Positions 9,262-29,848 of a stretch of DNA of 64,000 nt are shown here, piece after piece (position 1 is the stretch's first letter; each line of letters opens with the position of its first letter). Location of the stretch: positions 544,001 to 608,000 of the forward strand of contig CAWKHF010000006.1 of assembly GCA_963849325.1 (NCBI GenBank), given 5' to 3'. The notes below the pieces were generated by a model. That model did no database searches. It was given only the letters and a program-made list of their open reading frames with translations, and was not told where the DNA came from. Both the position numbers and the translations under genes were made by a program. This DNA is from an uncultured Planctomycetota bacterium (GTDB lineage: Bacteria > Planctomycetota > Planctomycetia > Gemmatales > Gemmataceae).

Positions 9262-9735
9262 CGTGGACTCCTGGCCAAGGCCCGGCGCGGAGTTGCGCCG
9301 GTGAAGAACAGGCTATCGGGCGGAGGCGGAGGCGGCGAAAGGAAAAGGAAAGACAGCTGCGGACCACGGAGGATATCTCAGCGAGGCCTTAACTTACGTC
9401 ATTTTTCTAGCCAACCCCTTTCGTCTTCCTCAATCCATCCCCTACAATTGATGCAGGCGGGACGGGTTTCTGGCCAACCTGTGGGACGATGACCTTGCGA
9501 TGGACTTCGAGCCGAAGCATTATTATGAAGCGGCTCAAGAGCGCCTGTTCCAGGCTGAGACGCTCTTCAACCTCTGTCCGGAGTGCCGAAAGAACCTGCG
9601 GGGCGAACGATATGCGGTCGTCGTGTACCTGGCGGGCGTGGCGGTAGAATCCATGTTCCGGGCCTACAAACTCAAGGTAGTCAGCCAATTTGACGAGAAG
9701 CACTCGCTGGACAGGTTGTTCGTCGCAAGCAGATT

Positions 9736-11066
9736 CAGTAGTTTCCGGTTCGGTCGGAACGACAAAAGGTGTAGAGGGCAATCGCAAGGCTCCTCCTGAT
9801 AATGACTTGTACCACCAAGGACATTTCAGGAGGAAGCCATGCGACACTCGGCAGTATACACTCACCCCCGCCCACGTCCAGGCCCACGCCGCCTAGCGCA
9901 TCCAAAAACATCTCCGCCTGCCAGACCACGGCCGCAAATGCACCAGCCGATACCCTGTGGACCGTCCTCTGCTACGCCGCCAGCCGCATCATCTCCCTGG
10001 CCGCTGCCTGCGCCGCCCTCCGCGATGCTCCCTCCGACAGCGCCGCCCACGATGCCTTGCTGGCCACCCTGCCCGACCTACGCCCAATTACAACGCCGCC
10101 TCAACCGCGCCCTGCAAGGCGACCTGCCCCACGCCTTACGTCGCCATCGCCAACCCCTGGCCATCGACCTCACCCTCATGCCCTACCACGGCAAACCCTT
10201 GCACCAACCCGACGAGATCTATCGCAGCCAGGCCAAGAGTGGCACCAGCCACTTCCACGCCTACGCCACCGCCTACGTCATCCGCAAAGGACGACGCTTC
10301 ACGGTCGCCCTGACGACGGTGGGCCGCCACGATGCCTTACCCGTCGTGCTCAAGCGGCTGTTGCGTGAAGCGGCCCGGGCCGGCGTCCGCCCGCGTTATC
10401 TGCTGTTGGATCGCGGCTTTTGCAGCGTGGACGTCATCCGCTACCTGCAAAACGCCCGCTACGCGTGGCTGATGCCGTTGGTGTTGCGGGGCCGCAAGGC
10501 CGACCACCCCAAGGGGCCATCGGGCAGCCGAGTCTTCGCCGGCCGCAAGCGGAGCGGTTGGGCGGCAGTACACGATGACCAACGCCGGCAAACGTCGGGC
10601 GCGGTTCCGCGGTGTGTATCAAGTGTCGCAACCGGCGGGGCGAGCGTGGACGGCATGGTCGTGAGGCGTTGGTCTATGCCTTCGGTGGGCCGTTGCGTCC
10701 GTCGTCGTATACGTGGGTGAAGGAGACGTACCGGAGTCGGTTCGCCATCGAGACGAGTTACCGGCAGATGCACCAGGCGCGGATTCGGACGTGTACGCGC
10801 GATCCGCTGCTGCGGTTGTTGTACGTGGGGATAGCGTTGCTGCTTGCGTAACGTGTGGGTGTGGTTGCATTGGCAGGTGTTGGCGCGTCGTCAGCGTGGC
10901 GGTCGGCGGATCGACCTGGGGCGTTTGAGCTTTCGCAAGATGCTGGTGTGGTTGCAACACTGGGCCGAAGCCCGTTTGGGAATCCACGATGAAATCGCCA
11001 CGGAACATCGGATGTATGAATGAGTTGGGGCATGGTATCATAATTCGAGATCACCGGAAACTACTG
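9736..11066 (+). mobile_element. ISH3-family (IS4-like DDE) insertion sequence
   Basis: TIR CAGTAGTTTCCGGT / ACCGGAAACTACTG; 5-bp target duplication AGATT (9731-9735, 11067-11071). Confidence 0.88.
9839..11023 (+). CDS. ISH3-family transposase (frameshifted)
   Basis: AIDLTLMPYHG, LLLDRGF and YRSRFAIETSYR DDE motifs across frames. Confidence 0.85.
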
Positions 11067-14722: not shown

Positions 14723-16229
14723 GGGTGGGCAGCTGTTACTTGGGTGGGTTTTTGGCTTGTCGCGCGATAGGTTGACTCCCAGGTCCAAAACGCACACGCC
14801 TTCTTCACACTCAGGAGTTGCATCATGGCTTCCCAGCACGGTCCTTCCCCAGTGGCCCCATCCCGCCAAGAACGCATCGAAGCCATCCTGCAACAGCTGC
14901 GACCCCAGATCGAACAGACCGTTCGCCAGCTTGTCGAAAGGGCCGTCGATGTTCCCGAGGCGGAGGAATTCGGCGCCATCGACTTCGAGTTCCGCGATGC
15001 CGGGCAGAAGCTGGTCAACCACGTCCGGCAAGCCAGCGTGGCGAGCCGGAAAAAAAGGGCTACGTAGGCTCCAGCGTACGCTGCACCTTGTGCGGGCACA
15101 CGGCCAAGTTTCATTCCTACCAGTCCCGGCGGCTGTTGACCGTGCATGGCGAGGTGCGTCTGGAGCGCGCCTATTCCTACTGTGCCCGCTGCCACCACAG
15201 TTGCATCCCCTACGACGAGGTACTGGGCTTGCACGATGCCATCAGCCCCGGCTTGCGGCCGCTGGTCTGTCTGGCCGGGACGATGGTGCCCTTCGGCGAT
15301 GCGTCCGAAGACATCCTCCGGCGTTTCTCCGGAGTGCGTCTGTCGGCTTCCTCGGTATTGCGCTGTACCCAAGGGGAGGGCGAACGCTTGCGGGCGCAGC
15401 AGAAAGCGGGGCCGATGGTCGAGCCGACGCAGCCCGAACTCCTCTGGACCGCACCGCGAAGGGAAGGGCAGCCCGCGGCCTATGTCGGCCTGGACGCCTT
15501 CAGCGTGCCGATGCAGGGGATCGGAGCAGGCAAGGCCGAGCATCGCATGCTCTACACCGCGTTGTTGTACACGCCGCAAAAGGAGCACAGCCGCTACCTG
15601 GTCGATTTCGACCTCGATGTGCTGGCGGAGCAAGTGGCGCGCAGGCCCGGGCGTTGGGCGTTACGCGGGTGAGTGACTTGATCGCCGTGACCGACGGCGG
15701 CAACGGCCTGGAAGAAGCCTTGCAGCGTCACCTGGCCGAGAACCTGACGACTATCCTGGATTGGTATCACGCCGCCGAACACCTCTGTGCCTTCGCCAAC
15801 GTCTGGCATGCCGGCGAGGAAACGGCCCGCGTGCTGTGGCAGCAGCAGGCCAAAGGAATCCTCTATGAGCAAGGGGGCGAAGCCTTGCTCACCTTTTTGC
15901 GGGCGTTGGACTTGCCGCCGGAGACATCGGCAGAGGTTCACGAGGAACTGCGGAAGCTGATCGGCTACTTCGAGAACAACCGGCATCGCACCGATTATCC
16001 GCGCTATCGTCAGAAGGGCTGGGACATCGGCAGTGGGCCGACGGAGGCGGGCTGCAAGATCATCGGTGAAAGGCTCAAGGGTTCGGGCATGCGCTGGGTA
16101 GAAGACGGTGCGGCAACCGTGGCGGCCCTACGGGCTTTATATGTCAGTGGCGGCAAGGTGTGGGACGGCTTCTGGTCGCAGCCTCACCGCGCCGCCGCGT
16201 AAAGTCACCCAAGTAAATGATTCACACCC
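14723..16229 (+). mobile_element. ISKra4/ISLre2-like insertion sequence
   Basis: Imperfect TIRs GGGTG...TTACTTGGGTG; 9-bp duplication TAGGTGCCG (14714-14722, 16230-16238). Confidence 0.85.
14825..16202 (+). CDS. ISKra4-like transposase; A7G3 slippery site near 15050 plus a further frameshift
   Basis: TVHGEVRLERAYSYC..C, VGLDAF, VTDGGNGL, LDWYHAAEHL and IGSGPTEAGCK motifs. Confidence 0.85.
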
Positions 16230-16348
16230 TAGGTGCCGCGAGCCGAGCGGCACAGGGCGTCCGGCTCGGCTCGCCGGACCTACTTGCGTGTTTGCAATGT
16301 TCGCCTTACTGTGAACGTGACGAAGGATACTCAACCGGGAGCGTGACG

Positions 16349-18055
16349 ATGTGCCGACTTCTGGGCATCCTGTGCGCCGTTTCTCTCTTCTTACCTGTCC
16401 GCGCTGCATCCGCTCGCGGCCCATTCGCGGACCTCGTCGTGACGAACGCGCGGATCTGGACGGTCAACTCGGCCCAACCGGAGGCTGAAGCGTTGGCGAT
16501 CGTGCGCGATCGAATCGCGGTTGTCGGCAGCGGCGCCGACGTGCGACCGATGATCGGCCCGAAGACGCGCGTCCTCGACGCGCAGGGTCGGCGAATCGTA
16601 CCGGGGTTTTACGACAGTCACATTCACCTGCTCGGCTCGGGCCTTCGTCTCTCCGAGGTCGCCCTGAAGGACGCGGCGAACGAGGCCGAGTTCGGCAAGC
16701 GTTTGCAGGCGTTCGATCGCAAACTGCCGCGCGATCGCTGGCTGCTGGGCGGCGAGTGGGACCACGATCGCACCTTCGGCGGACGTCTGCCCACGGCCGA
16801 GCTAATCGACAAGTACGTCGCCGACCGTCCCGTGTTCCTGCGCCGCTATGACGGACACATGGCCGTCGTCAACACATCCGCCCTTCGCCTCGCCGGCATC
16901 ACCGCCGAGACGGCCGAGCCAGCCGGCGGCGTGATTTATCGCAAGCCCGGTTCGCGTCACCCCAGTGGCGTGCTGCGCGACAACGCCATGAGCCTGGTCG
17001 AACGTCTTGTCCCGGCGCCGACGGAGGAGCAGATCATCGAAGCCGTCCGCGCCGCCCTGGCCGAAGCGCGGCAAGTCGGCGTCACCAGCGCCCAGGACAT
17101 GGGCGGCAGCGCCGGCGCGATGCGGCGTCGCCTGTTTCGTCTGTATCAGCAGTTGGCCCGGCAGGGTCAGCTGACGATGCGTCTCGATCTCCGCTGGCCG
17201 TTGGCGGACTGGCGCAGTCTGGCGATGCTGGGCGTCGAGGCAAATTACGGAGACGACTGGGTGCGTATTGGCGGTGTCAAGGGCTTCGTCGATGGCTCGC
17301 TCGGCTCCAGCACGGCGAAGATGTTCGACTCCTACCGGAACGAGAAGGGCAGTACGGGCGTGTACGTGACGCCGCTCAACCGTCTGCGCGAATCCATCGA
17401 AGGCGCCGACGCGGCCGGGCTGTCGATTGCCGTACACGCCATAGGCGACCGCGCCAACGCCGAGCTGCTCGACATCTTCGCCGAGGTGGCGAAGAAGAAC
17501 GGGCCGCGCGATCGTCGTTTCCGCATCGAGCACGCCCAGCACTTACGGCCACGCGACTATGCACGCTTCAAGGAACTGGGCGTGATCGCGTCCCTGCAAC
17601 CGTACCACGCCATCGACGACGGCCGCTGGGCCGAGGGACGCATCGGGGCGGAGCGATGCGCTTCGTCCTATGCGTGCCGGTCGCTGCTCGACGCGGGAGC
17701 GCGGCTGGCGTTCGGCTCGGATTGGTCGGTGGCGCCGCTCAACCCGCTGCTGGGCATCGACGCCGCCGTCAATCGCCGCACGCTGGACGGCAAGCATCCC
17801 AAGGGCTGGTTCCCGCAGCAGAAGATCGGCGTCGCCGAGGCGATCGCGGCGTACACGCTCGGTTCGGCGTATGCGGCGTTTCAGGACAAGGATCGCGGCT
17901 CGCTGGAGGTGGGCAAACTCGCCGACTTCGTGGTGCTGTCGCGCGACATTCTGGCGGACTCGGAGCGCGATCGCATCGCTGAGACGAAGGTGCTGGCTAC
18001 CATCGTCGGAGGCAAGGTCGTTCACGAGAACAGTCGAGAAAAGGGCCGCCCTTGA
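16349..18055 (+). CDS. Secreted amidohydrolase (amidohydro_3 / YtcJ-like)
   Basis: PGFYDSHIH, DGH, KGFVDGSLGS, HAIGDRAN, RIEHAQ, FGSDW and GKLADFVVL motifs. Confidence 0.92.
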   Translation: MCRLLGILCAVSLFLPVRAASARGPFADLVVTNARIWTVNSAQPEAEALAIVRDRIAVVGSGADVRPMIGPKTRVLDAQGRRIVPGFYDSHIHLLGSGLRLSEVALKDAANEAEFGKRLQAFDRKLPRDRWLLGGEWDHDRTFGGRLPTAELIDKYVADRPVFLRRYDGHMAVVNTSALRLAGITAETAEPAGGVIYRKPGSRHPSGVLRDNAMSLVERLVPAPTEEQIIEAVRAALAEARQVGVTSAQDMGGSAGAMRRRLFRLYQQLARQGQLTMRLDLRWPLADWRSLAMLGVEANYGDDWVRIGGVKGFVDGSLGSSTAKMFDSYRNEKGSTGVYVTPLNRLRESIEGADAAGLSIAVHAIGDRANAELLDIFAEVAKKNGPRDRRFRIEHAQHLRPRDYARFKELGVIASLQPYHAIDDGRWAEGRIGAERCASSYACRSLLDAGARLAFGSDWSVAPLNPLLGIDAAVNRRTLDGKHPKGWFPQQKIGVAEAIAAYTLGSAYAAFQDKDRGSLEVGKLADFVVLSRDILADSERDRIAETKVLATIVGGKVVHENSREKGRP

Positions 18056-18073
18056 ACTCCCATGCGGCCCTTA

Positions 18074-18162
18074 GAGGCACTAACCGAATGTGGCGGCACG
18101 TTTGTAACGTGCCGTACAATCCAACACGTTGAAAACGTGTTGCCACATTTTGTTAGAGCCTC
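18074..18162. mobile_element. MITE with GAGGC TIRs and TTA duplication (same ends as 4924-5024, different internal hairpin)
   Basis: tta|GAGGCACTAAC...GTTAGAGCCTC|tta; internal TGTGGCGGCACGTTT...AACGTGTTGCCACA. Confidence 0.75.
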
Positions 18163-18230
18163 TTAATCGTCACATTCGGCAATCTTTCCCGCATCCTCTT
18201 TTCTCGCCCCCAAGAAAATTGGGAAAAGTG

Positions 18231-18257
18231 GGTAACGCAACTCACCCTGAGCGACAA
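18231..18257 (+). promoter_or_regulatory. Possible ECF-type promoter (GGTAAC-N15-CGACAA)
   Basis: AAC-containing -35 and CGAC-type -10 directly upstream of the ECF gene; pattern match only. Confidence 0.3.
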
Positions 18258-18271
18258 TGAATAGGTGAGGA

Positions 18272-18916
18272 TTGACGCCCTGTTCCGAGCCGGAGCGAAG
18301 TCGGATGGGTGGAAATGCGTCCGATGGCGGACCCGAGACGACCGGCGGCGACCGGGCGGAGCACCTGCGCCGCGCGATCGACTATGCGATCAACTACGAG
18401 TATGAAACGCTGATTCGCCGCGTCGGTCTGCTGGTCTACCGCATCTGCGGCCGATTGAGGCGCGATGAGGTTGCGGATCGGTCCCAGGAGGTTCTCGGTG
18501 AGGCGGTGAAGCGCGCCTTGCAGGCGGCGGAGCGGTTCGATCCGGGACAGTCGGCGACCGCCTGGTTAATGGGTTTCGCTCTGCACATTCTGCAGGAGCA
18601 GCGGCGCGGCCGGGCGAAGCGCGTCGTCGCTCAGAGCGATCTCGGCGAGGAGGCGTGGCGGCAAACCCTGGCGGAATTGTGCGCCGCCGATACGGATGCC
18701 GCGACCATCCGTCTCGACGTCCGGCAGGCGTTGGCGCGTCTGGACGAAGGGCAGCGACGCATCGTGGAGTTGCGGTATTTCGATGGGTTGGATGGAGAAG
18801 AGTTGGCGCGAGCTGTGGACGCGCCGTCCGCGGGCGCCGCGCGGGTGCGGTTGGCGCGGGCGTTGCAAGCGCTGCGGCGACAATTTCGACTGGCTGAAGG
18901 CGAGGGGACGCCATGA
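18272..18916 (+). CDS. ECF (sigma-70 group 4) RNA polymerase sigma factor; start may be 18305
   Basis: Region 2 AERFDPGQSATAWLMGFA; region 4 ALARLDEGQRRIVELRYFDGLDGEELA...VRLARALQALR. Confidence 0.9.
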   Translation: MTPCSEPERSRMGGNASDGGPETTGGDRAEHLRRAIDYAINYEYETLIRRVGLLVYRICGRLRRDEVADRSQEVLGEAVKRALQAAERFDPGQSATAWLMGFALHILQEQRRGRAKRVVAQSDLGEEAWRQTLAELCAADTDAATIRLDVRQALARLDEGQRRIVELRYFDGLDGEELARAVDAPSAGAARVRLARALQALRRQFRLAEGEGTP

Positions 18917-19482
18917 CGGAACACGAACAGGCCGCCGGCTGGGCCGAGACCGCCCTGCGCTACCTCGACGCCCTCGACGCCGGCGACATCAACACACTGG
19001 CCGCGCTGTGGGAGCAAGCGGCTGCGAATCCCGAGTTGGAGCAAGTGTTAGGGGAGCTGACGGATGGACTCGCCGCCGAGGAGGGGGCATGGCCGTCGTG
19101 GGAGGCCGACGCCGCCCGCGTTCGGGATCTGTTGCGCGAGCATTTACCCAGTGGCTTCTCCGCTCCGGAGGAACCGCCGCCGCTGACCGTCCGTGATGTG
19201 GCGGCTCGCTTGCAGTCCGATAATGCCGTGGCCGGGCGTCTGAGCGTGGCGGATCGGACGGCCAACAGCCGACTACTGGCCGACACGACGCCGGTGCCGG
19301 AAGAACTGGGTTTACCGCACTTCGAGAAGTGGAAGACGACGCTGGGTGTCAGCGCCAGTCCGCACTATTGGCGAGCCTTTCGGCAGACGGCGGTGCTGCT
19401 GGCGATGGGTCGATGTCAACAGGCCGGCGAGTTGGCCGCGGCGCGCCGAGCCGGCCGGACACCGAGGGGAGGGCGGTCATGA
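18913..19482 (+). CDS. Hypothetical soluble protein, candidate anti-sigma factor
   Basis: ATGA overlaps with both neighbours; no TM segment and no evident HTH; lies directly after the ECF gene. Confidence 0.7.
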   Translation: MTEHEQAAGWAETALRYLDALDAGDINTLAALWEQAAANPELEQVLGELTDGLAAEEGAWPSWEADAARVRDLLREHLPSGFSAPEEPPPLTVRDVAARLQSDNAVAGRLSVADRTANSRLLADTTPVPEELGLPHFEKWKTTLGVSASPHYWRAFRQTAVLLAMGRCQQAGELAAARRAGRTPRGGRS

Positions 19483-20144
19483 GTCGGGCCGACGATGGCG
19501 TCCTCGTCGCCGACGCGATCCGGCGGCTTCACGCCGCTGCCGGTCTGCCGTGGCCGCCCCCCGCCAACCCCGTCGTCACGCCGGTGCCGCTCGATACGCT
19601 CATCGCCAGCTATAACCTGGTGCATGAGGAGGTCCCCGAATTGAGCCACGCTTCCGCCGGGGCCTTCCTCGTGCGCTGGGGAGTACGGCGCCCCGAACTG
19701 CTGGAAGATTCGTCGCCGCTGGCCGGTTTCCTTTTCGCCAACGCACGCGGCGGCTACATTCTGGTCCGAGGCGATGATCCGCTGCCGCGCCGTCGGTTCA
19801 CGGCGGCGCACGAACTGGGGCATTATCTGCTGCACTTCCTGCCGCGATTGCAGGCGAAGCAAGATCCGGAAACGTATCTGCTCAAGGATGACAGGGACGA
19901 TATGGTGCGCGAGGAGGCGAAGGACGGGGATGTCAAGGCGTTGTCACTACCGGAGATGGAGATGGAGCGGCAGGCCAATCGATTCGCGGCCGAGTTGTTG
20001 ATGCCGGAGTCCGTGTGCCGGATTGCTTGCGTGCAATGCTTCCGCCCGACGCCGCGATTTCTGGAGCATCATCTCGCCGGTACTCTGCTTGTCAGTCGAG
20101 AGGCGGTGCGCTGGCGTTTGCGGGGGCTGGCGCTGACAACCTGA
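19479..20144 (+). CDS. ImmA/IrrE family Zn metallo-endopeptidase
   Basis: RRRFTAAHELGHY (HExxH) and MERQANRFAAELLMP motifs. Confidence 0.92.
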   Translation: MSRADDGVLVADAIRRLHAAAGLPWPPPANPVVTPVPLDTLIASYNLVHEEVPELSHASAGAFLVRWGVRRPELLEDSSPLAGFLFANARGGYILVRGDDPLPRRRFTAAHELGHYLLHFLPRLQAKQDPETYLLKDDRDDMVREEAKDGDVKALSLPEMEMERQANRFAAELLMPESVCRIACVQCFRPTPRFLEHHLAGTLLVSREAVRWRLRGLALTT

Positions 20145-20209
20145 CAAGCTCGGAGTGCCAGCGACGGGTAGCACCCGCGACGGGTCGAGGAACCAACGAG
20201 GCAGCGACG

Positions 20210-21241
20210 ATGAGCCTGGATTTCCTCCTGCACTACGGCGGCCGGCGTTTGCGGCAGTACGTCGAACAACCGCCGCTCGACGCGCCGGCCGACGACGACG
20301 ATGACGGAACGCCGATCGCCACGCTCGACCTGGAGGCGCCCCTCGACGCCTGGCAGCCGCGTTCGGTCGCCTCCGATGTGCTCGACCCGGACGCCGTGCC
20401 GCGGCGTTTCATCGACGGCTGTCACTCGGGACAGACGGTCGCCTGGCTGCAAGATGCACTCGGCCATCCCATCCCCGTCCGGTTAGCCGAGATCGGCGGC
20501 GTGTGCATGCAGTCTGAAGGCCGTTCCCTGCGCCGACAATTCGCCCATGTCGAACGGATCGTGTGCTTGATCGTCGATCCGTTCCCCTGGCACGAGGTTG
20601 AGAACTTCGCCGCGACGTTGGCGGAGATCGGCATGCGTCTCTTGCCGGCTTTGCCGCCGATGATCGAGGACGCACGCCAACTGATCTACGATTACGCGAG
20701 CATGGAGCAACGGACGTACACCCAAGCGCAAGTGGAGATGCGCATTCTGGAAGAGTTGGCGTTAGGTCAAGATCCCGAGGCGCTGAGTTTGGTTGATGGC
20801 CCACTCGGACGGCTGGAACACCCTCGGGCGATCGGGGTCATCAAGCAGCATCGAAAGAATTATCTGGGTCTGCATCCGCAGTGCTGGCAGGTGTTCTACC
20901 AACTCGAACCGGGGCAGCGCACGCCGGCGTTTCGGCTGGCCAGCCAAAGCGCGCCGCTGGTGTCGTGGTATTTCAAGCTGGACGGCGCACACGGCGCCAT
21001 GCCGAACTGGGGCATCGTTCGCATCGAAATCAGCTGCGCTCACTTCGAGCGCCACGATTGCGACTTTCGCTATCTCGATAGATTGTCGAACGCTCTGCTG
21101 CACCTGCGCTGCCGCCAGGGCAGCTATGCGCGAGCGCCGGTCTCGATGGAACCGATCGTGCGCGCGGAGGAGAGCCTGAAATCGCTCCTCACCGCGCCGG
21201 CCACGTTGGCCCAGCGGTTTTACCATCTGACCGGCTTGTGA
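20210..21241 (+). CDS. NurA-like nuclease (RNase H fold)
   Basis: RFIDG, LVDGPL, IGVIKQH, GQRTPAF, SWYFKL, GIVRIE and RAPVSMEPIVRAEESLK motifs; lies directly upstream of the HerA-like gene. Confidence 0.72.
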   Translation: MSLDFLLHYGGRRLRQYVEQPPLDAPADDDDDGTPIATLDLEAPLDAWQPRSVASDVLDPDAVPRRFIDGCHSGQTVAWLQDALGHPIPVRLAEIGGVCMQSEGRSLRRQFAHVERIVCLIVDPFPWHEVENFAATLAEIGMRLLPALPPMIEDARQLIYDYASMEQRTYTQAQVEMRILEELALGQDPEALSLVDGPLGRLEHPRAIGVIKQHRKNYLGLHPQCWQVFYQLEPGQRTPAFRLASQSAPLVSWYFKLDGAHGAMPNWGIVRIEISCAHFERHDCDFRYLDRLSNALLHLRCRQGSYARAPVSMEPIVRAEESLKSLLTAPATLAQRFYHLTGL

Positions 21242-21269
21242 GGCGGTTTCGACTTGGGAGTATTCAACG

Positions 21270-23088
21270 ATGAACGATGGAATCCCAACTGTGCAGCAAG
21301 CTCCATCTCGTTTGGTTTCCGTGTCGCCGTCTTCGGCCAAGGACGTCATCGGCAAGGTCGCCTCGCCGCCGCGACGCGAATCGACCAGCGAGGAGTTCTA
21401 CTTCTGGGTCGCGCCGGATACGCTCGTCGAAAAGTCGCAGATCGTCCGCACCGAGAGCGAGGTCGCCGGACAACGGTTGGTGTTTTACGGTCTCATCCGC
21501 GAGGTCTATCGCCAGAGCCGGCAGAGCGATCTCGGCGAGGAGTTTGACCGTCACGATGGCGACGTGGGTTATCAACCGCCCTTCGATTCGCCCGGTTTCA
21601 CCTACGCTGCCGTGACCATCCTGCGCACCGAACCCGCCGTGATGACTCCGCCGAAGGAAGGCAGCGATGTTTTCCTCGGCGGCGAGCGCGAGGCGTACAT
21701 GGCTTACGGCGCGGACGAGATCGAGAAACCGCTGGCCGTCGGTCTTGTCAAGAACGGCGGCACGCGCCTGATCGGCCCCGGCCGCATCGACCTCGACTAT
21801 TTGCTCGGCGCCAATGGCGGCCACCTGAACGTCAACGGCGTCGCCGGCCGCGGCACGAAATCGAGTTTGCTGTTGCACTTCAATTACCTGCTGCTGCGCG
21901 AGGCGCGCAAACAGCAGCGCGAACGCCCCGGCGACCGGGACCGACTGCGGATCGTGCCCATTATCCTCAACGTCAAAAACTTTGATCTCTTCCACATCGA
22001 CCGCCGCAGCACGCGCTACGATCCGGCCAAGCACGCCGCCGACTGGCACGCGCTGGGCATCGACGATCCGGCCCCGTTCCAGAACGTGTCTTTTTATGCT
22101 CCGCAGTTGCCCGGCCAGGACATACCTGTCAACACCGGGCGGCCGAAGTCCGACGTGAAGGCGTACAGTTGGAGCCTGCGCGAAGTGATCGAGCGCGGGC
22201 TGCTGAGTTACCTGTTCGCCGAGGACGACGTGCGCAACGCCAACTTCGGCACCCTGGTCCTCGATATCGAGAACTACCTCACGCAAGAGCGATTGGAACG
22301 CGACAACACCCGTCTGCGCAAGCTGAAAACCGGCCCCGACGTGCCGTGCCATTTTGATGGGCTGCTCAAATGGGTGGAGGAATTGGCCCTCAACGAGCAA
22401 GGCACTATCAATCCCCTCAAGGGCAAACATCACTCGGCGACCCTGCGCAAACTCTACCGTCGCCTGCTGCGACTGGTCTACGAGGGCAACGGCGTGCTGC
22501 GCCGCGATGCCCAGCAGGGCAAGCCACTCGACGTTTGCGCCCGCGATTCGCGCGACCCGATCGTCGTCGATCTCAACGGCCTGTCGGCCGTGCCGGCGCT
22601 GCAGCGCTTTGTCGTCGCCACCATCTTCCGCCAACTGGTCGAGGAACGCACCGGCTCGCACGCTCAGCGCGGCCTCATCTATCTCGTCACGCTCGATGAA
22701 TTGAACCGCTTCGCCCCGAGCGGCGCGCACGATCCCATCACCGAATTGATCGAGCGCGTGGCGGCGGAAATGCGTTCCCAGGGCATTATTCTCCTGGGGG
22801 CGCAGCAACAAGCGTCGCTGGTGTCGGGCCGCGTCATCGAGAATGCCGGCATCCGGGCGCTGGGCAAGAGCGGTTCGCTCGAGTTGAGTCATAAGGTCTG
22901 GGGAGGTCTGAGCGAATCGGCGCGTCGCAAGGCGTCGATGCTGCTGCCGGAGGAGAAGCTGCTCATCCAGGACAGCTTTCGCGAGCCGCTGCTGGTGAAA
23001 ATCCCGTTCCCGCCCTGGGCGGTGCGGGGCCGAAGCCGTCGAGGAGGTGCCAGCCGCGGGGAGCAGGGTCGAACTGGAGGATTTGTGA
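21270..23088 (+). CDS. HerA-like (DUF87/FtsK-HerA) ATPase; C-terminal frameshift near 23028
   Basis: N-terminal HAS-barrel-like region, Walker A variant HLNVNGVAGRGTKS, Walker B LVTLDELNRFAP, MRSQGIILLGAQQ. Confidence 0.85.
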
Positions 23089-23181
23089 CGAAGACGGACC
23101 TACGGACTTTGCATCCGGGCCGAGACTTCTGCGATAATACGTCAAATTGTGTTTGCGGGCGATGAGGAGAAAGGCGAAGGC

Positions 23182-24414
23182 ATGCGTATCCTGCACACGG
23201 CGGACTGGCACCTGGCCGACCGACTTGGCCGCATCGATCGCACCGACGACCTGCGTCGAGCGGTGGAGCGCGTGGCCGACTATTGCCGCTCGGAAAAAGT
23301 CGATGTCCTTCTCGTTGCCGGCGACCTGTTCAGCGAGCTGGCGGGACCGGACGCGCTGCGCGAGTCGATCCGTCATTTGCAGGAGACGTTTGGGCCGTTC
23401 CTGCGCGAGGGCGGAACGATCCTCACACTCACCGGCAATCACGATAAGGAGAACTTCTGCCAGACCCTGCGTCATGCCATGAACCTGGCGGCGCCCGGCG
23501 TCAAACCGGGAGCACTGGCCCCGGCCGGCCGGCTCTATCTCGCCACCGGCCCCGCGCTGCTGCAACTGCTGGATCGGGATGCGCAGAAGGGCGTTCAGTT
23601 CCTCCTCATGCCGTATCCGACACCCACGCGCTACCTCCAGGACGAGGTGGCCCAGCGCTATCAGGGGCTTGACGAGAAAAACCGTCACCTGATGGCGGCC
23701 TACACTAGCCGCCTCAACGAATTGCAGACCGACCCGCGTTTCGACCCGCGCTTGCAGACGGTGCTGGCCGCTCATATCCACGTCGAGGGCAGTTTATTGA
23801 AAGACGAGTCGCCCTTTCGGATTACCGAACAGGAGGATGTGCTCTTCAAGCCTGCCGACGTACCGACCGGCTTCGCTTACATCGCCCTGGGCCACATCCA
23901 CAAGGCGCAGTGTCTGGGAGGTCAGAAACACGTCCGTTACTGCGGCAGCGTTGAGCGCTTGGACTTGGGCGAGAGTAACTACCAGAATGGCGTCGTCCTC
24001 TTCGACCTCGGGCCGGAGGGCTTGCGAGGCGAGCCCCAGGTATTGCCGCTGGAGGCAACGCCGATTTACGAGGTTCCCATCCATTCGCCGCAAGACGAAA
24101 TCCCTGGCCTACGCCAGCGCTACCCCGACTCTCAGAAAGCCTTGGTGCGCATCGTCTGTACCTACACCGCCGGGGTCGATAACCGCGAGGAGATCCTGCG
24201 CAAGTTGGATGACATCTTCCCGCGCTGGTACGATCGAAAAATTATCGAGAAAAACGCGCTGAGCGAGACCCTTGCCGGCCCGCAGGGTCCGGCGAAGAGC
24301 TTCGAGGAAACGGTGCGCGATTATCTGCGGCAGGAGCTGACCAACCATGCCGATGACTTCCGCGAAGCCGTGCTGGCACGGGCCGAAGACCTTCTGAAGG
24401 CGGTGGACGCATGA
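23182..24414 (+). CDS. sbcD: SbcD/Mre11 nuclease subunit
   Basis: MRILHTADWHL, VAGDLF, GNHD, AHIH, YIALGHIH and YCGS motifs. Confidence 0.93.
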   Translation: MRILHTADWHLADRLGRIDRTDDLRRAVERVADYCRSEKVDVLLVAGDLFSELAGPDALRESIRHLQETFGPFLREGGTILTLTGNHDKENFCQTLRHAMNLAAPGVKPGALAPAGRLYLATGPALLQLLDRDAQKGVQFLLMPYPTPTRYLQDEVAQRYQGLDEKNRHLMAAYTSRLNELQTDPRFDPRLQTVLAAHIHVEGSLLKDESPFRITEQEDVLFKPADVPTGFAYIALGHIHKAQCLGGQKHVRYCGSVERLDLGESNYQNGVVLFDLGPEGLRGEPQVLPLEATPIYEVPIHSPQDEIPGLRQRYPDSQKALVRIVCTYTAGVDNREEILRKLDDIFPRWYDRKIIEKNALSETLAGPQGPAKSFEETVRDYLRQELTNHADDFREAVLARAEDLLKAVDA

Positions 24415-27400
24415 TCCCCCAACGCATCCGACTCAAAGGCTTCCTGTGCTACAAGGACGAACAGGAAATCAACTTCGACAGCAACGCCACGCTCTGGATG
24501 CTGTCCGGACTCAACGGCAGTGGCAAGTCGAGCATCTTCGATGCTGTCACCTACGCGCTCTTCGGCCATCATCGCGGCGGCAGCCAGCACGCTGTCGAGC
24601 TAATCAACAAAGACGGCGACGGCTTGGCCGTCGAATTCGATTTCCGCCTCGATGAGCGCGTTTACCGCGTGCGGCGGACCCTCCGCCGCAAGGTGCGCGG
24701 CGCACCGAGCCCGACGCAGCAGATCTATCGTTACGAGCCGGGCGGCGAGCACGACTGGGTCGCCGTGGAGGGAACGAATTACAGTAGCGAATTCCAGAAC
24801 TGGATAAGAGATAAAATTGGTCTTACATATGATACATTCACCTCCTCCGTCCTGCTGCTTCAGGGCAAGGCGGACAAATTGCTCGATTCGAAGCCGGAAG
24901 GACGGCGGGCCGTGCTGGCCAGCATCGTCGATCTGGAGCGCTACAAATGCTTGCACGAGAAGGCGGACGCCAAGCGGAAAGAGCTGAAAGGAAAGCTGGA
25001 GGGTCTGTCCGACCGTTTGGCGGCGCTGCCGGAGGTCAAGGCGGAGGAGGTGGCGGCGGCGGAAGAGAGCATCCGAACGGCGGAAACGTCCCGCGAACAG
25101 GCCCGCGCGGAGGTCGAGCGTTTGCGCGAGATGGAACGACAAGCCCGCGCCTGGATGGAGCTGCAAAGCAAACTGGCGGCCGCTCGGCAGCGCTGGCAGC
25201 GCCGGACAGTTGCTCGAGGACGCCGCCGCCATTGAACGCGGCGTGGATCGGCTGCGCGAGCTGCGCGAGGTGCTGCCGCGTCTGCGCGAGATCGTCAAGC
25301 AACGCGGAACGATCCGCGACGTGGACCTCGCCAGCAAGGGACTGCTGCAAGAAAAGGACAAAACGGCGGAACAGCTGGCGCGGTGCGACAGCGCGCTGGG
25401 GCAGGAGCGCGACAAACGAACGACGCTGCAAACGCGCATGGAGGCGGAGGAGAAACAGCGGCAAGAGTTGGAGCCGCAATTGCGGAGCGTCATCGCCGGG
25501 GTGGAGAAGTTGACGGAGTACGAACGGCAGTCCGCGGAGCTGGCGCGCATCCGCGAGGAACTCGCCCTGTTGCCCGCCGACGCCACCGAGGAAGTGAAGC
25601 GAGCGCGAACGACGTGCGAAGGACTCGCCGCGCTGGCGCAACTCCTCCCCCAGCTCGTTCGCTTTCACGAACACCGCGAAGGGCTTCGGCAGGCGCTGGA
25701 GCGCGAACAGACGGCGAAACAACGTCTCGCCCAGGTCGAGACGCGCGGCAAGCACTGGAACGCCGAGCTGAAGCGCCTGGGACCGTTGGTGAAGGACGCC
25801 GATGGCGCGGCGCGGCAGGCCAGGGACCAAGAGACCGAAGCGCGCACCTTGCTCCAGCAGGCGCGGGACAGTCTGCGCGAAATCACGCATCTCGACGGCG
25901 CCAAGCGTTGCCGACACTGCGGCTTGGAGCTGACGCCGCAGCACCTCCACGAGGAGAAACGCCGCCGCGACGAGGAGGTGAGGCGGGCCGAGGAGCGACT
26001 CCAAAAAGCCGCTGCCGTTCTCCAGGCGGCGCGGCATGAGGAACAGCGATTGCGCGAAGACGAGAGCGGCGCGCAAAAGAACTACCAGGAGGCGCGCGAA
26101 GAATACCGCGAAGCGCAGAGCCAGGTAAACCAGGCCCGCGCCGACGTCACACGCTTGCAAGGTGATTGCGCCCGCGCTCACGACGACTTGCCGGACGAGC
26201 ATCGCCGGCGAATCGGGGCGGCGCCGGTCGCCGACTGGCTGAAGACGGAATATCCCACGCCGAGCGATCTCGAGCAGCTGCGCGCCGAGGCGGCCGGCCA
26301 TTCCGCGGCGCGGCAACGCTTGCACAAGGCCGAAGACGTCCTGAAGCAGTGGACCAAGCTCCACACGCAAGAGTCCGACAAGCTCGCCACCCTCGACCGC
26401 CTGCAAGCCGGCCTGCCTGCTGACCGCGAGGCGGTGCGGCGGATGCACACCGATCTCAGCGTCCGCCTCGAAACGCTTGACAAAGACCTCAAGGCCAAGC
26501 GCGGCCAGCGGAAAGACGCCGACGCGGAGATCGAACGCTGGACGCGCGAACGCGAGCGTTGGCAGGGACAGCTCAACCGCATCGACCTGGAGCTGAAGAA
26601 AAAGGAACTGGATGGCCAGAAGGCTCGGGAATTGATCGCCGTCAACCAGAAGGCGTTGCCGGTTTCGTGGCAGGCGGCCGCCGAGACCGCCGGCGCCGCC
26701 GAGTATAACCAGTGGGACAAGGAACGCGCCGACCTGGAAGCGTCCGGCGCCGATTCGCGCGGCAAGGAACTCCTGGAAGCACGCCATAAGCTCGACTTGT
26801 TTCGACAGGACAAGGAATCGCTGGAGTCTCAGCAAGATGCCTTCGCGGCCGAGGCGCGCCGCGATCCGGCGGACATCAAGGCGGAACTGGACCAGGCCAG
26901 GCAGGCGGAAGCGCAGGGCGACAAGGGCTTGACCGAGGCGCGGCAACAGCTCGCTCTCTTGCACGGCTACTGCAAACAGCGCGAGCAGATTGGCGAGGAG
27001 AGCATTCGACTGGAAGGCGAATGGTCCCTGTACAAGATCCTGGCCGAACTGCTTGGCAAGGACCGCCTGCAACTGTACCTGGTGCGGCAGGCGGAAAAGC
27101 AGGTGGTGGAGTACGCCAACGCCGTGCTCGATCGGCTCTCCGGCGGCCAGCTCTACTTGAAATTGAAAGGCGAAGCCGACGGTGAGGGTGGAATCCGACC
27201 GCGCGCTCGACCTGGAGGCGTACAATCGCGGCACCGGCGAGAAGCCAATCAACGTCGCCTTCCTCAGCGGCAGCCAGAAGTTCCGCGTCGCCGTCAGCCT
27301 GGCGCTGGGCATCGGCCAGTACGCCAGTCGGCAGCATCGACCCATCGAGTCGGTGATCATCGACGAGGGTTTCGGCTGTCTCGACAGCCAGGGCCGACAG

Positions 27401-27550
27401 GTCATGATTCAGGAATTGCAAAACCTCCGCAGCCAGATGCGCTGCATCCTGCTCGTCTCGCATCAGGAGGAGTTCGCCGAGGCGTTCTCCGACGGCTATC
27501 ACTTCGAGCTGGAGTCCGGGGCCACGAAGGTACGGCGCGTCCAGAAATGA
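24411..27550 (+). CDS. sbcC: SbcC/Rad50 SMC-like ATPase; frameshifts near 25200 and 27195
   Basis: Walker A GLNGSGKS, Q-loop LLQG, long coiled coil, Zn hook CRHC (25909-25920), LSGSQ signature, IIDEGFG, VSH. Confidence 0.92.
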
Positions 27551-27612
27551 AGCCGCCGCTGGCTTTGCGGAACTTTTCGTGTCCCGTTGGGTTCAAAGAA
27601 CAGCGGACCGAA

Positions 27613-27670
27613 CCGAGCCGCGACCGTCAGGGAGCGGAGAATACCTCGCTCCCTGACGGTCGCGGCTCGG
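27613..27670. repeat. REP-like palindrome
   Basis: CCGAGCCGCGACCGTCAGGGAGCG / CGCTCCCTGACGGTCGCGGCTCGG. Confidence 0.8.
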
Positions 27671-27709
27671 ACGGTATCTGGTTTCGCTCCTGCTTGCGAA
27701 AGGTCTACC

Positions 27710-28660
27710 ATGCGTATCCTCCGCTCCTTCGCGTTCACCGCGGGGATTGTGCTGTTGCTCGCCGGATTCACGGCTTGCCGGAAAGGCCACTCGGTCTCGC
27801 AAGCTCCGGAGACGGCCGACACCGGCACCAAATCCAAGCCGATAACGGTGGCCGTCAACAAGCCGGCTGCCCCCGTGAATCCGGGGCCGACGGCTCCCGT
27901 GAAAGTGGAGAAAGCCCCGGCCCCGGACCTGAATCCCCTCAACATGGAAGTGACCGCCCTGGAGACACTCAGTCAGTTCAAACTCACGCGGGAGCAGCTC
28001 CAACAGCTCGCCAAGCTCGCTCCGATGACGGCGCGGAAACCGGCCCCTCCCCGGCCAACCAAGGTGAGCGAGGAATATCACAAGGCGCTCAAGGACCTGC
28101 GCGAAGCGCTGCTCGACGACAACGAGGTTCGCGTCGCCGACCTGACGCTGACCCTGGAGGAGCTGCGCGACAAGGAAGACCCCGACTTCGATGACGTGGA
28201 GATCACCGACGCGGCCCGGCGGCACACCCCGGAAGTCCTGCGCAGCCTCGGCGCTCGGCAACTGATGGGATACCTCTCCGACTTCGCCGAGGAATTCCCC
28301 GACCCACGCGAGAAGCTGACGGACGCCTTCGAGGACGTTCGCAAATTGCCCGCCAAGGAATGGGAGGAGCTGCGCGATGAGGTGGCGGGACAGGTTGGCT
28401 GGCTGGCGGCCGGGCTCGACATCGCGGCGGAGGGCAGGGTGCGCAATCGCGCCGCGGATTTGCTCAACCGTGTGCGCCGCCTCAAAGACGACGAATACAC
28501 CGTCCAGCGGGAGGAACTGGAGCGAGAGGTGCAGGGCATCGTTGGCAACATCGGGCCGACCGACGTTATCCGTCATTTCGCCGAGCGCTCGCTGGCCGAG
28601 TTGCTTGCCAATCCCCGTCTCGCCGCCGCCGTGGAAGGTCTCTTGAAGAAGGCCGAGTGA
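27710..28660 (+). CDS. Putative lipoprotein, helical
   Basis: Signal peptide with lipobox-like FTAC; Pro-rich linker. Confidence 0.65.
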   Translation: MRILRSFAFTAGIVLLLAGFTACRKGHSVSQAPETADTGTKSKPITVAVNKPAAPVNPGPTAPVKVEKAPAPDLNPLNMEVTALETLSQFKLTREQLQQLAKLAPMTARKPAPPRPTKVSEEYHKALKDLREALLDDNEVRVADLTLTLEELRDKEDPDFDDVEITDAARRHTPEVLRSLGARQLMGYLSDFAEEFPDPREKLTDAFEDVRKLPAKEWEELRDEVAGQVGWLAAGLDIAAEGRVRNRAADLLNRVRRLKDDEYTVQREELEREVQGIVGNIGPTDVIRHFAERSLAELLANPRLAAAVEGLLKKAE

Positions 28661-28666
28661 CGCCGA

Positions 28667-29848
28667 TCAGGACGAGACCTCCAGGCCGAGCAGCGTCAGG
28701 TCGTCCGGCTGCTCGCTGGCGCCGAAGAGGTCGCGGGCCAGGCGGTCCACGAAGTCGTGGATCGGCAAGTCCCGATGCCGGGCGGCACAGGCGAGCAAAC
28801 TCGCCGTCCCCGGTGGATGATCCTCATATCGTCCCGTATCGATGCCGTCGCTGTACAGCAGCACCTTGTCGCCGGGTTTCAGGGTGTAGGTATGGGCGGG
28901 GAAGACGGCATCGACCACTCCCAGCAACAAACCCTCCTGCCGCCAGAACACCGGCTCGCCCTCGCGCGGCACGTGCAGCGGATAGGGGTGTCCCGCCCGC
29001 GCGAAACGGAACGTGCCTTCCTTGTGGTTGTACAGACCATAGGCCATGGTGATGAACGGGTTCTCGGCCAGCTGCTGGTCGAGCAGGTCTTTGTTGAGCC
29101 GCTGCAACACTTCTCCCGGCGGCACCAGACGGTAATGCTGGCCGAACACCTCCTTGGCCCGCACTCCCTTCTTGACGAAGATGGTCAGCAGGCTGGCGGG
29201 TACGCCGTGGCCCATCGCATCGGCGACGTACAGGCCGACGTGTTGCTCGTCGAGGCGAAACACGTCGTAGAAGTCGCCGCCGACGCGATCGCGCAGAAGA
29301 TAATGGACGGCGAAGCGCGTCCGCGACACGTCCGGCAGCGTTTGCGGCAGGAAGCTCGATTGGATACGCTGGGCCAGCTGCAGCTCATGGTCGATCTGCT
29401 GGTGGAGTTGCTGGAGGCGTTTGTTGATGCGATGGACCTCGGCAGTCTTGCCGGCGAGGCGGTCGTGTGCGTCCTTGATGCGGAGCAGCGCCCGTGCTTG
29501 TGCGAGCAATTCCCCGCGAGCGAACGGCCGCAACAAACAGACGTCGGCGCCGGCCTCGAAGCCGGCCAGGCGGGCCGCATCTCCCCGATCCTCCGTCAAA
29601 TACAGAATCGGCACAAATCGGGCATCCAGACGCTCGCGCAGGCGGCGACACAGGTCGAGGGCCGGACCCGAACACCGGCCACCCTCGATCGCAATCAACT
29701 GGTAGTCTCCCGGCCCGTCCGGGTCCGGGGTGTCCAACAGGTGCCCGGTCAGATCGCAACCGATGCCCGCGAGAAGGTGGCGCAGCTCGGCCAGCGTGCC
29801 CGGCTGATTGGCGCAGACGAGAATTCGGGGTAGTCCGTTGACGCTCAT
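28667..29848 (-). CDS. Receiver-like domain plus PP2C/SpoIIE phosphatase (RsbU-like)
   Basis: GFEAGAD, AQRIQSSFLP, VGGDFYD, VADAMGHG, LYSDGI and DDLTLL motifs. Confidence 0.9.
   Translation of the reverse strand: MSVNGLPRILVCANQPGTLAELRHLLAGIGCDLTGHLLDTPDPDGPGDYQLIAIEGGRCSGPALDLCRRLRERLDARFVPILYLTEDRGDAARLAGFEAGADVCLLRPFARGELLAQARALLRIKDAHDRLAGKTAEVHRINKRLQQLHQQIDHELQLAQRIQSSFLPQTLPDVSRTRFAVHYLLRDRVGGDFYDVFRLDEQHVGLYVADAMGHGVPASLLTIFVKKGVRAKEVFGQHYRLVPPGEVLQRLNKDLLDQQLAENPFITMAYGLYNHKEGTFRFARAGHPYPLHVPREGEPVFWRQEGLLLGVVDAVFPAHTYTLKPGDKVLLYSDGIDTGRYEDHPPGTASLLACAARHRDLPIHDFVDRLARDLFGASEQPDDLTLLGLEVSS

Follow-up and report, generated by a model that had tools for sequence, protein, structure and literature searches.

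A conserved seven-gene bacterial cassette joins genes for a sigma factor, a predicted anti-sigma factor and an M78 peptidase to nurA, herA, sbcD and sbcC

Why do a sigma factor gene and a peptidase gene stand directly in front of a complete set of genes for DNA-end processing, and do all of these genes belong to one system? The question is raised by a stretch of 64,000 nucleotides (nt) of contig CAWKHF010000006.1 (the window), from the genome of an uncultured Gemmataceae bacterium. Seven genes, here called g1 to g7, lie head to tail on the + strand at 18272-27550 of the window (Table 1). The initial annotation had described them as co-oriented genes encoding an extracytoplasmic function (ECF) sigma factor, a protein of no recognised kind, a HExxH peptidase of the ImmA/IrrE kind, a NurA-like nuclease, a HerA-like ATPase, SbcD and SbcC. 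All seven were found where it had placed them, and searches with models, profiles and folds agreed with its identities. The three ATGA overlaps that it reported are real (g1/g2, g2/g3 and g6/g7), and the other gaps, given there as below 100 bp, are 65, 28 and 16 nt as assembled. GC content is even across the seven genes, at 0.63-0.65. Our comparison with other genomes suggests that these are known parts, combined in a way that is widely conserved but has not been described, and that their sigma factor is probably controlled in a new manner.

One conserved seven-gene unit

A pattern scan with the HerA alignment yielded 80 loci, in which the other genes were located by tblastn and by profiles made from our own alignments. 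The full set g1 to g7 was present in the same order in 39 of the 46 loci that had both flanks; the script itself counted 35, having wrongly set aside four loci (L012, L048, L064 and L065) through its overlap or open reading frame (ORF) criterion. The seven exceptions are L001, which has no g1; L003, with g3-g5 only; L031 and L054, without g1-g3; L025 and L041, without g1-g4; and L052, where herA stands by itself. The ORFs upstream of L025, L031, L054, L003 and L052 were unrelated genes or absent altogether, with no alternative regulator among them. Sequence reached at least 3.4 kb upstream of herA in 61 loci, and g4 was present in 57 of these, g3 in 55, g2 in 53 and g1 in 52. For g4 the script had given 53/61, its overlap criterion having dropped L003, L048, L064 and L065 despite the presence of the gene. 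The sigma factor gene lay directly upstream of g2 in 52 of the 61 loci. On the other side, sbcD and the 5' part of sbcC were found in 52 of the 55 loci whose downstream sequence extended for at least 4.6 kb. Median intergenic gaps from g1 to g7 were -4, -4, 3, 10, 35.5 and -4 nt, a spacing from which co-transcription of the genes may be inferred.

The linkage was also followed from the peptidase gene. A reverse scan of metagenome contigs with the g3 alignment recovered 14 orthologous g3 loci (score at least 184). All 14 lay inside the cassette, with cassette genes present on every side that the contig reached. None of the 66 other M78 loci (scores 50-105) had g2, g4 or g5. Together, these results show that the regulatory trio g1-g3 and the nuclease block g4-g7 are one conserved unit. 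The link between trio and nuclease block that the initial annotation had drawn from a single locus thus holds in other genomes, in 39 of 46 loci seen from herA and in 14 of 14 seen from g3. Its remark that the four-gene nuclease block is uncommon in bacteria needs softening, since the block was found in loci labelled with ten phyla.

Table 1. Features of the cassette and its borders, in window coordinates
Feature	Position	Strand	Basis or remark
g1, ECF-family sigma factor	18305-18916 (alternative TTG start 18272)	+	Pfam/NCBIfam models
g2, all-helical protein of 189 amino acids (aa), predicted anti-sigma factor	18913-19482	+	AlphaFold2 (AF2) and complex model
g3, M78 (ImmA/IrrE/CapP-type) zinc metallopeptidase, 221 aa	19479-20144	+	PF06114
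g4, bacterial-type NurA nuclease, RNase H-like fold, 343 aa	20210-21241	+	Profile and fold
g5, bacterial-type HerA ATPase, 631 aa as assembled	21270-23165	+	Profile against PDB 7f6d_B
g6, SbcD/Mre11-family nuclease, 410 aa	23182-24414	+	TIGR00619, Pfam Metallophos
g7, SbcC/Rad50-family ATPase, CxxC zinc hook	24411-27550	+	TIGR00618
Putative ECF-type promoter, GTAAC-19 nt-AAT	18232-18258	+	47-73 nt upstream of g1 ATG
Palindromic dispersed repeat like repetitive extragenic palindromic (REP) elements, directly after g7 stop	27608-27676	none	Hairpin -65 kcal/mol

Sigma factor, predicted anti-sigma factor and peptidase

The first gene of the cassette encodes a protein made of sigma regions 2 and 4 only. 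It matched the models Sigma70_r2 (27.2 bits, cut-off 24), r4_2 (36.9 bits, cut-off 25.7), Sigma70_ECF (21.7 bits, cut-off 21.1) and TIGR02937 (57.2 bits, cut-off 42.9), which is the profile of an ECF (group 4) sigma-70 factor. The product of g2 had no match in Pfam, NCBIfam or PADLOC, and its best E-value among PDB sequences was 0.11. Its AF2 model (predicted local distance difference test score, pLDDT, 84) consists of helices throughout, arranged in one domain of residues 1-82 and another of residues 93-181, and compared with PDB folds it gave a best E-value of 0.74. The g2 family is large and unannotated: a profile search of 1.84 billion representatives returned 1131 relatives at E <= 0.001, of which 473 were at <= 1e-10 and 177 at <= 1e-30. 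A protein atlas put g2 in an unnamed family of its own; the weak lead that it offered besides (score 0.90, a cluster with 31% HTH_31) had no other support and was dropped.

A model of the g1-g2 complex reached an ipSAE of 0.80, a model confidence obtained from our own alignments, compared with 0.01 for the best control. Contact agreement between runs was at least 65% and partner pLDDT at least 73. This mark was attained by 58 of 80 solved complexes and by 2 of 110 mismatched pairs, and the training data of the complex model hold no detectable g2 relative. In the predicted contacts, g2 residues 4-86, which form the N-terminal four-helix domain, lie on sigma region 2 (22-100) and region 4 (158-191) of g1. 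The model thus predicts that g2 binds g1 in the classical anti-sigma arrangement. No membership of a described anti-sigma family (zf-HC2/ZAS, RskA and others) was found by Pfam, NCBIfam, PDB sequence or fold, and the g2 alignment has no Cys/His zinc motifs.

Natural fusions connect g2 with the genes on both of its sides. Long proteins of 427-457 aa make up eight of the 150 best g2 representatives, and each of the eight has an M78 domain at its C terminus. The g2 and g3 genes share one ORF in L020 (Rubrobacteraceae) and in L001. Fusions to sigma are found in L023 and L053, where a single ORF spans g1 and g2, and in P0293; a sigma region 4 stands in front of one g2 relative of 300 residues. By its predicted binding to the sigma factor and its fusions to the peptidase, g2 fits the part that the regulatory circuit proposed in the initial annotation would require.

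The peptidase g3 matched PF06114 at 5e-14 (52.5 bits, cut-off 22), and its best PADLOC match was CapP (3e-19). An RRRF motif, the HExxH motif (H111, E112 and H115), H119 and E163 are invariant in 25 sequences, consistent with an M78 zinc site. The M78 peptidases ImmA, IrrE and CapP cleave their partner regulators ImmR, DdrO and CapH, and thereby control the adjacent operon. The g3 gene is coupled to g2 by a 4-nt overlap and by the fusions described above, and on the analogy with these pairs we infer that g3 cleaves g2. By the analogy with IrrE, ImmA and CapP, the protease might be activated by DNA damage or single-stranded DNA.

ECF sigma factors typically recognise the promoter of their own operon. 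Within the 150 nt upstream of g1, the motif GTAAC-N18/19-AAT was present in 13 of 36 loci, at 36-94 nt from the gene. The background is 0.004 per 150 nt, so that ~0.14 loci would be expected; some of the 13 are close kin. The 13 loci bear the labels Planctomycetota, Acidobacteriota, Armatimonadota and Chloroflexota. Variants that differ from the motif by one letter occur in further loci, and five cyanobacterial loci have two tandem TGTAAG..GGCAATT copies upstream of g1. The strict form found in close relatives is unique in the 8.16-Mb genome of the window. The motif looks like a self-recognised ECF promoter. A scan of 17800-28000 for sigma-70 promoters and intrinsic terminators gave counts at the level of shuffled sequence.

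Repeats were seen at both borders of the cassette. On the upstream side, the amidohydrolase gene and the g1 promoter are separated by a near-perfect palindrome of ~95 nt (18073-18163; -52.4 kcal/mol, z -9.8). This is a dispersed repeat: BLAST matched it 24 more times in the genome, in 22 cases over 76-96 nt with 97-100% identity. Related loci do not have it. An Rfam scan of 17000-29000 gave a single sub-threshold match, to a miRNA family, which proved to be a palindromic dispersed repeat. The repeat after g7 has 321 BLAST segments in the same genome, and many short contigs of sequencing run X2 pile up there; it may mark the 3' end of the operon or act as its terminator. Inside the cassette, the herA-sbcD spacer (23100-23181) contains TGCGA-Y-AATAC .. 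ATTGTG, a stretch that five copies from Gemmataceae have kept and that is similar to the -10 part of the g1 promoter. It could serve as an internal promoter or as a binding site.

Enzymes, carriers and neighbours

Neither g4 nor g5 matched any Pfam (NurA, DUF87 and HerA_C included), NCBIfam or PADLOC model. A g4 profile built from 18 relatives identified Deinococcus radiodurans NurA in the PDB (7f6d_H, 2.5e-10). In Foldseek searches with the g4 AF2 model (pLDDT 87.2), NurA structures ranked first (7f6d_G at 1e-13, Thermotoga maritima TM1739, 1zup, at 8e-12 and Sulfolobus solfataricus NurA, 2ygk, at 7e-6), followed by the NurA-like TdpAB subunit at 1.5e-4. By this comparison g4 has the RNase H-like NurA fold. 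Four acidic residues are invariant in the alignment (D69, E131, D196 and E273). A g5 profile of 12 relatives aligned over positions 22-596 with residues 8-607 of D. radiodurans HerA (7f6d_B, 2.5e-60), and its Walker A (GRGTKSS) and Walker B (LDELNRF) motifs are invariant, as in a HerA translocase. By these profiles, g4 and g5 belong to the bacterial, Deinococcus-type branch of NurA and HerA. The g6 product matched TIGR00619 (5.8e-31; 108 bits, cut-off 77.65) and is the sole SbcD match in the genome assembly of the window, which is 84.7% complete. The g7 product matched TIGR00618 with an N-terminal piece (5e-46) and a C-terminal piece (8e-16). The sbcC gene is intact in 50 of 55 related loci, and the CxxC hook is present in the window SbcC and in all 50 intact relatives, identifying g6 and g7 as SbcCD.

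Complete cassettes were found, by the phylum names that submitters had given, in Planctomycetota, Cyanobacteriota (Calothrix, Mastigocoleus and Brasilonema), Chloroflexota, Armatimonadota, Acidobacteriota, Actinomycetota (Rubrobacteraceae), Myxococcota and one 'Pseudomonadota' bin, and shortened forms in Abditibacteriota. Bins labelled Bacteroidales and Alcaligenaceae nest in a Gemmataceae clade and may be mis-binned. Two full cassettes are on plasmids, one of 241 kb in Candidatus Chlorohelix allophototropha and one of 40 kb, of the MOBV type, in Aulosira laxa NIES-50. By similarity, all seven genes are also present on p6912-1 (L062), a plasmid of 46 kb from Chlorogloeopsis fritschii, where herA is truncated and sbcC interrupted. 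In that copy, ~1.2 kb (9102-10267) separate the body of sbcC from the part encoding the C-terminal ATPase, and herA ends at residue ~490. Carriers that can be cultivated include Zavarzinella formosa DSM 19928, Calothrix sp. PCC 7103, Chlorogloeopsis fritschii PCC 6912 and Thermogemmatispora tikiterensis T81.

Distribution within the family is patchy. The NurA profile matched 26 of 151 Gemmataceae genomes, 21 of the 88 of high quality, 17 of 90 genera and all three genomes of the genus of the window. The g2 profile matched none of the 300 other Planctomycetota genomes sampled, with ten candidates scored per genome. SbcD was found in 137 of the 151 Gemmataceae genomes at E <= 0.001, in 88 of them above the cut-off, and genomes that carry the cassette mostly have two SbcD matches. 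In a quick maximum-likelihood tree of HerA (73 rows, eight having been dropped because the best segment held a stop), Gemmataceae form two separate clades. Starred branches of the tree force at least three label changes for Chloroflexota and at least two for Armatimonadota. As labels are otherwise clustered, the tree indicates that transfer between phyla is occasional and not rampant. Phage records gave just two HerA matches, at ~25% identity, which leaves a phage origin unsupported. The cassette is an accessory, horizontally mobile unit.

In the window the genes on either side are an amidohydrolase, an uncharacterised gene and a response regulator-phosphatase, and these flanks are syntenic only with a same-genus relative. 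Neighbours of other kinds recur elsewhere. Among 125 immediate-neighbour ORFs, six were like tRNA-guanine transglycosylase (TGT) or DpdA, four were Wadjet JetA, four Cas1/Cas4 and four DUF6884/DpdC-like, and clustering of 515 flank ORFs found TGT-like genes at nine loci (plus the Aulosira plasmid), DUF6884 at seven, Cas4-Cas1 at five, JetA at four, JetB and JetC at three and Cas3 at three; these counts come without a matched random control and from related loci that are not independent. The presence of defence-type genes around the cassette is suggestive only. One cassette adjoins a gene for a WYL-WCX protein. On the Chlorohelix plasmid, genes for Swt1-HEPN, TIR and Ser/Thr kinase proteins lie just upstream of the cassette and IS200/IS605 lies downstream.

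Some of these neighbours form an extended version of the cassette. In Calothrix (L015), DUF6884, g1-g7 and a TGT gene stand on one strand as a nine-gene form (DUF6884 at 5634-6437, TGT at 16216-17241 of that locus), and the TGT-like protein matched PADLOC DpdA at 3e-8. DUF6884 is named as the DpdC domain in the available part of a preprint (PMC11888242). A co-oriented TGT gene follows the cassette on the Aulosira plasmid. Such bracketing by co-oriented DpdC-like and DpdA-like genes, with no DpdB, was seen in cyanobacteria and on two plasmids (L015; L062:10643-11689; L090:15077-16138). Two queries, DUF6884 and one TGT protein linked to a cassette, gave no match in the genome of the window. The cassette of the window is thus not part of a Dpd system by these searches; DpdA/DpdC-like flanks occur in a minority of the other loci, where no DpdB was seen. 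A second set of four genes adjoins the cassette at L017:1491-6758 and also in L020, L028 and L058. It consists of a DpdA-like TGT, a canonical HerA (DUF87/HerA_C; PADLOC HerA 2e-60), a canonical NurA (PF09376) and DUF6884, and may be a separate HerA-NurA system linked to 7-deazaguanine.

Defence, repair or decay

The closest described relatives of g4 and g5 are the D. radiodurans NurA and HerA (PDB 7F6D and 7WRW/7WRX), which g5 resembles over its full length and g4 by profile and fold. In the available part of one account (PMC9960219), that pair is treated as a two-gene operon, with no mention of a sigma factor, a peptidase or a linkage to SbcCD; g4 and g5, unlike that pair, are embedded in a seven-gene unit. 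The archaeal herA-mre11-rad50-nurA operon holds the same four enzyme families, including a Zn-hook Rad50/SbcC, in one operon, and is a repair operon according to the accessible text of a review (PMC13748450). Compared with it, the cassette differs in gene order, encodes bacterial-type proteins (SbcCD and Deinococcus-type NurA and HerA) and has a three-gene regulatory switch. It is also accessory and plasmid-borne, whereas the archaeal operon is core. A 2026 review, in the portion available, denies that a complete NurA-HerA-Mre11-Rad50-type unit exists in bacteria, and for this branch the loci described here contradict it.

Known M78 switches are ImmA-ImmR (ICEBs1), IrrE(PprI)-DdrO and CapP-CapH of the cyclic-oligonucleotide-based anti-phage signalling system (CBASS). 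As in these, g3 is an M78 protein beside or fused with a small regulator. In the known pairs that regulator is an XRE-type helix-turn-helix repressor, whereas the partner in the cassette is a predicted sequesterer of an ECF sigma factor, so that cleavage would bring about sigma release and not derepression. Like the ECF modules controlled by regulated proteolysis, such as RseA with DegS/RseP, the cassette would have an autoregulated sigma factor, a co-transcribed inhibitor predicted to contact its regions 2 and 4, and a protease whose gene is coupled to that of the inhibitor. It differs from them in that g2 lacks a membrane segment and a zinc-binding anti-sigma motif and belongs to no Pfam family, and in that the protease is a cytoplasmic M78 enzyme. 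The literature searched contained no M78 peptidase paired with an anti-sigma factor.

Among defence systems built on HerA or on structural maintenance of chromosomes (SMC) proteins (Sir2-HerA, DUF4297-HerA, TdpAB, Lamassu LmuB, MADS mad3 and Wadjet), those with HerA also combine a HerA-type hexameric ATPase with a nuclease, and the cassette SbcC matched the models of LmuB and mad3. Unlike Sir2-HerA, DUF4297-HerA and their kin, the cassette has no Sir2, DUF4297 or phosphorothioate-sensing partner. A 2026 survey related to Bacteriophage Exclusion (BREX) describes HerA/FtsK 'capture' systems with TGT and GNAT, and its available part does not mention NurA, SbcC or ImmA (PMC12839542). Searches on bacterial NurA-HerA in defence and on DUF6884/DpdA found no paper on the seven-gene cassette, nor was a description of it found elsewhere in the literature within reach, which excluded subscription journals and supplementary tables. 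The view of the initial annotation that no system of this architecture has been described therefore stands so far.

We tentatively favour the view, at somewhat short of even confidence, that the cassette is an accessory, mobile and self-regulated DNA-end-processing module, most likely for the inducible destruction of linear or replicating foreign DNA. In such a circuit, the N-terminal four-helix domain of g2 would sit between sigma regions 2 and 4 and hold g1 inactive. A signal, which could be DNA damage, single-stranded DNA or infection, would lead g3, whose translation is coupled to that of g2, to cleave g2. The freed g1 would then drive the GTAAC-N19-AAT promoter before its own gene and hence the whole packed operon. 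SbcCD would open blocked or hairpin ends, and HerA-NurA would translocate along and degrade duplex DNA. The available parts of PMC9960219 and PMC13748450 ascribe end-opening and translocase-nuclease activities to the enzymes of Deinococcus and of archaea. Defence is favoured because the cassette is patchy, is found on plasmids, occurs mostly in genomes with a second SbcD and recurs beside defence-type genes. A more specific version, in which an undescribed anti-sigma factor cut by an ImmA/IrrE-type peptidase on damaged or foreign DNA releases a NurA-HerA-SbcCD anti-phage or anti-plasmid system, in some carriers with DpdA/DpdC-like self-marking, seems to us rather unlikely as a whole.

The same circuit and machine could instead be directed at the host chromosome, in which case the cassette would be a transferable, inducible module for double-strand-break repair after desiccation, ultraviolet light or radiation. 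This is a serious contender, though on balance we doubt it. It can be likened to the IrrE-controlled response of Deinococcus, and the closest solved relatives form the D. radiodurans NurA-HerA end-resection complex (PMC9960219, available part), to which the archaeal repair operon may be added (PMC13748450, likewise in part). In the genome of the window, as far as its 84.7%-complete assembly goes, no RecB or AddA match exceeded the cut-off and no RecBCD or AddAB was recognised. A single UvrD/PcrA-type helicase locus, at ~292000-294000 of contig C4, lies below both the RecB and the AddA family cut-offs. The cassette SbcD is the only copy found in this assembly, the host range is rich in soil-crust taxa that tolerate desiccation and radiation, and the neighbourhood in the window is not a defence island. 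Repair is harder to reconcile with the patchiness within one family (26/151), which is unusual for a core repair pathway, with carriage on small plasmids, with the recurrence of CRISPR, Wadjet or Dpd-type neighbours in other genomes and with the additional SbcD of most carriers. The genome of the window also encodes LexA, so that there is no gap which a damage regulon of its own would have to close, and the LexA independence invoked in the initial annotation gives no argument of that kind.

Several further observations weigh against a self-regulated defence module. Rubrobacteraceae, Nostocales of crusts and rocks, Ktedonobacteria, Abditibacteriota and Gemmataceae are tolerant of desiccation or radiation, and a host range so rich in such taxa fits repair as well as defence. 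The D. radiodurans NurA and HerA have been studied as end-resection and repair enzymes (PMC9960219, available part). The cassette of the window has ordinary flanks, and the neighbour counts from other genomes share the limits given with them above. PADLOC 2.0 gave no match for g1, g2, g4 or g5, and none for the NurA and HerA of the intact relative L005. Its other matches were generic (CapP and RmrA for g3; mad3, LmuB and PbeC for SbcC), so that the comparison with a defence catalogue proposed in the initial annotation yielded no system-specific match for the core genes. Regarding the circuit, sigma/anti-sigma complexes are among the training data of the complex model, and the exact promoter motif was present in just 13 of 36 loci. 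A looser form of the motif was found 70 times genome-wide where ~100 would be expected; it is no rarer than chance and no regulon can be read from it. The cassette is eroded in the same genus: L001 (G107) keeps the promoter motif without g1 and the N-terminal domain of g2, and L002 (G038) and L003 (G136) have only g3-g5 left. In the window itself, three frame breaks would disable sbcC and the tail of herA if they were real.

These breaks had been overlooked in the initial annotation, whose genes and coordinates stand and whose picture of an intact locus does not. The sbcC gene is spread over three reading frames (24411-25235, 25210-~27190 and 27182-27550). Compared with three intact Gemmataceae relatives (L001, L005 and L006), it has lost ~2 nt at ~25199 and has a net gain of 1 nt at 27190-27200. 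The last ~45 residues of herA are unlike those of all relatives, the cause being a loss of 2 nt near 23024 in a DNA alignment with four relatives. In the other frame, herA ends like relative L004, with a stop near 23088. Three breaks inside 4.2 kb, together with the eroded same-genus relatives (L001, L002 and L003), could mean that the cassette is a decaying pseudogene cluster in this genome and no longer works. We consider this improbable. A short-read contig of 151 bases from soil run X1, the sole DNA run containing words of the window (14% of those sampled), is identical to the window at 140/140 positions and reads a single A in place of the two at 27192-27193, which removes the third break as a probable assembly error. 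No near-identical contig of the sequencing runs spans ~23024 or ~25199, and among the runs listed no RNA run contained the region. Losses of 2 nt in GCGC-rich context are typical of systematic long-read errors, and both of these breaks are of that kind. The assembly has only 14 contigs and yet a marker completeness of 84.7%, as expected of an indel-rich long-read assembly, and the seven coding sequences are otherwise 65-88% identical to intact relatives. The frame breaks are very likely assembly errors for the most part, with a short-read contig contradicting one of the three.

That the seven genes are not one system, the sigma/anti-sigma/peptidase trio lying by chance beside a housekeeping nurA-herA-sbcCD, might be read from the nuclease genes that lack the trio at L031 and L054 (and also g4 at L025 and L041), but is scarcely credible and is already contradicted by the synteny survey, in which the order is kept in 39/46 loci from many phyla and from plasmids, the g3 subfamily is exclusive to the cassette (14/14) and 4-nt overlaps are usual.

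Whether it serves inducible defence, as we tentatively favour, or repair, the cassette means that many bacterial phyla have a complete NurA-HerA-Mre11-Rad50-type set in the form of a unit that is stable and can be transferred. Its regulatory part is a candidate for a new signalling link, in which the target of an ImmA/IrrE-type protease would be an anti-sigma factor and not a repressor. The DpdA/DpdC-like genes that recur beside the cassette might extend the known range of 7-deazaguanine restriction-modification systems. With cultivable carriers and a clonable cassette of ~9.3 kb, it can be tested whether bacterial HerA-NurA proteins are repair factors or immune effectors.

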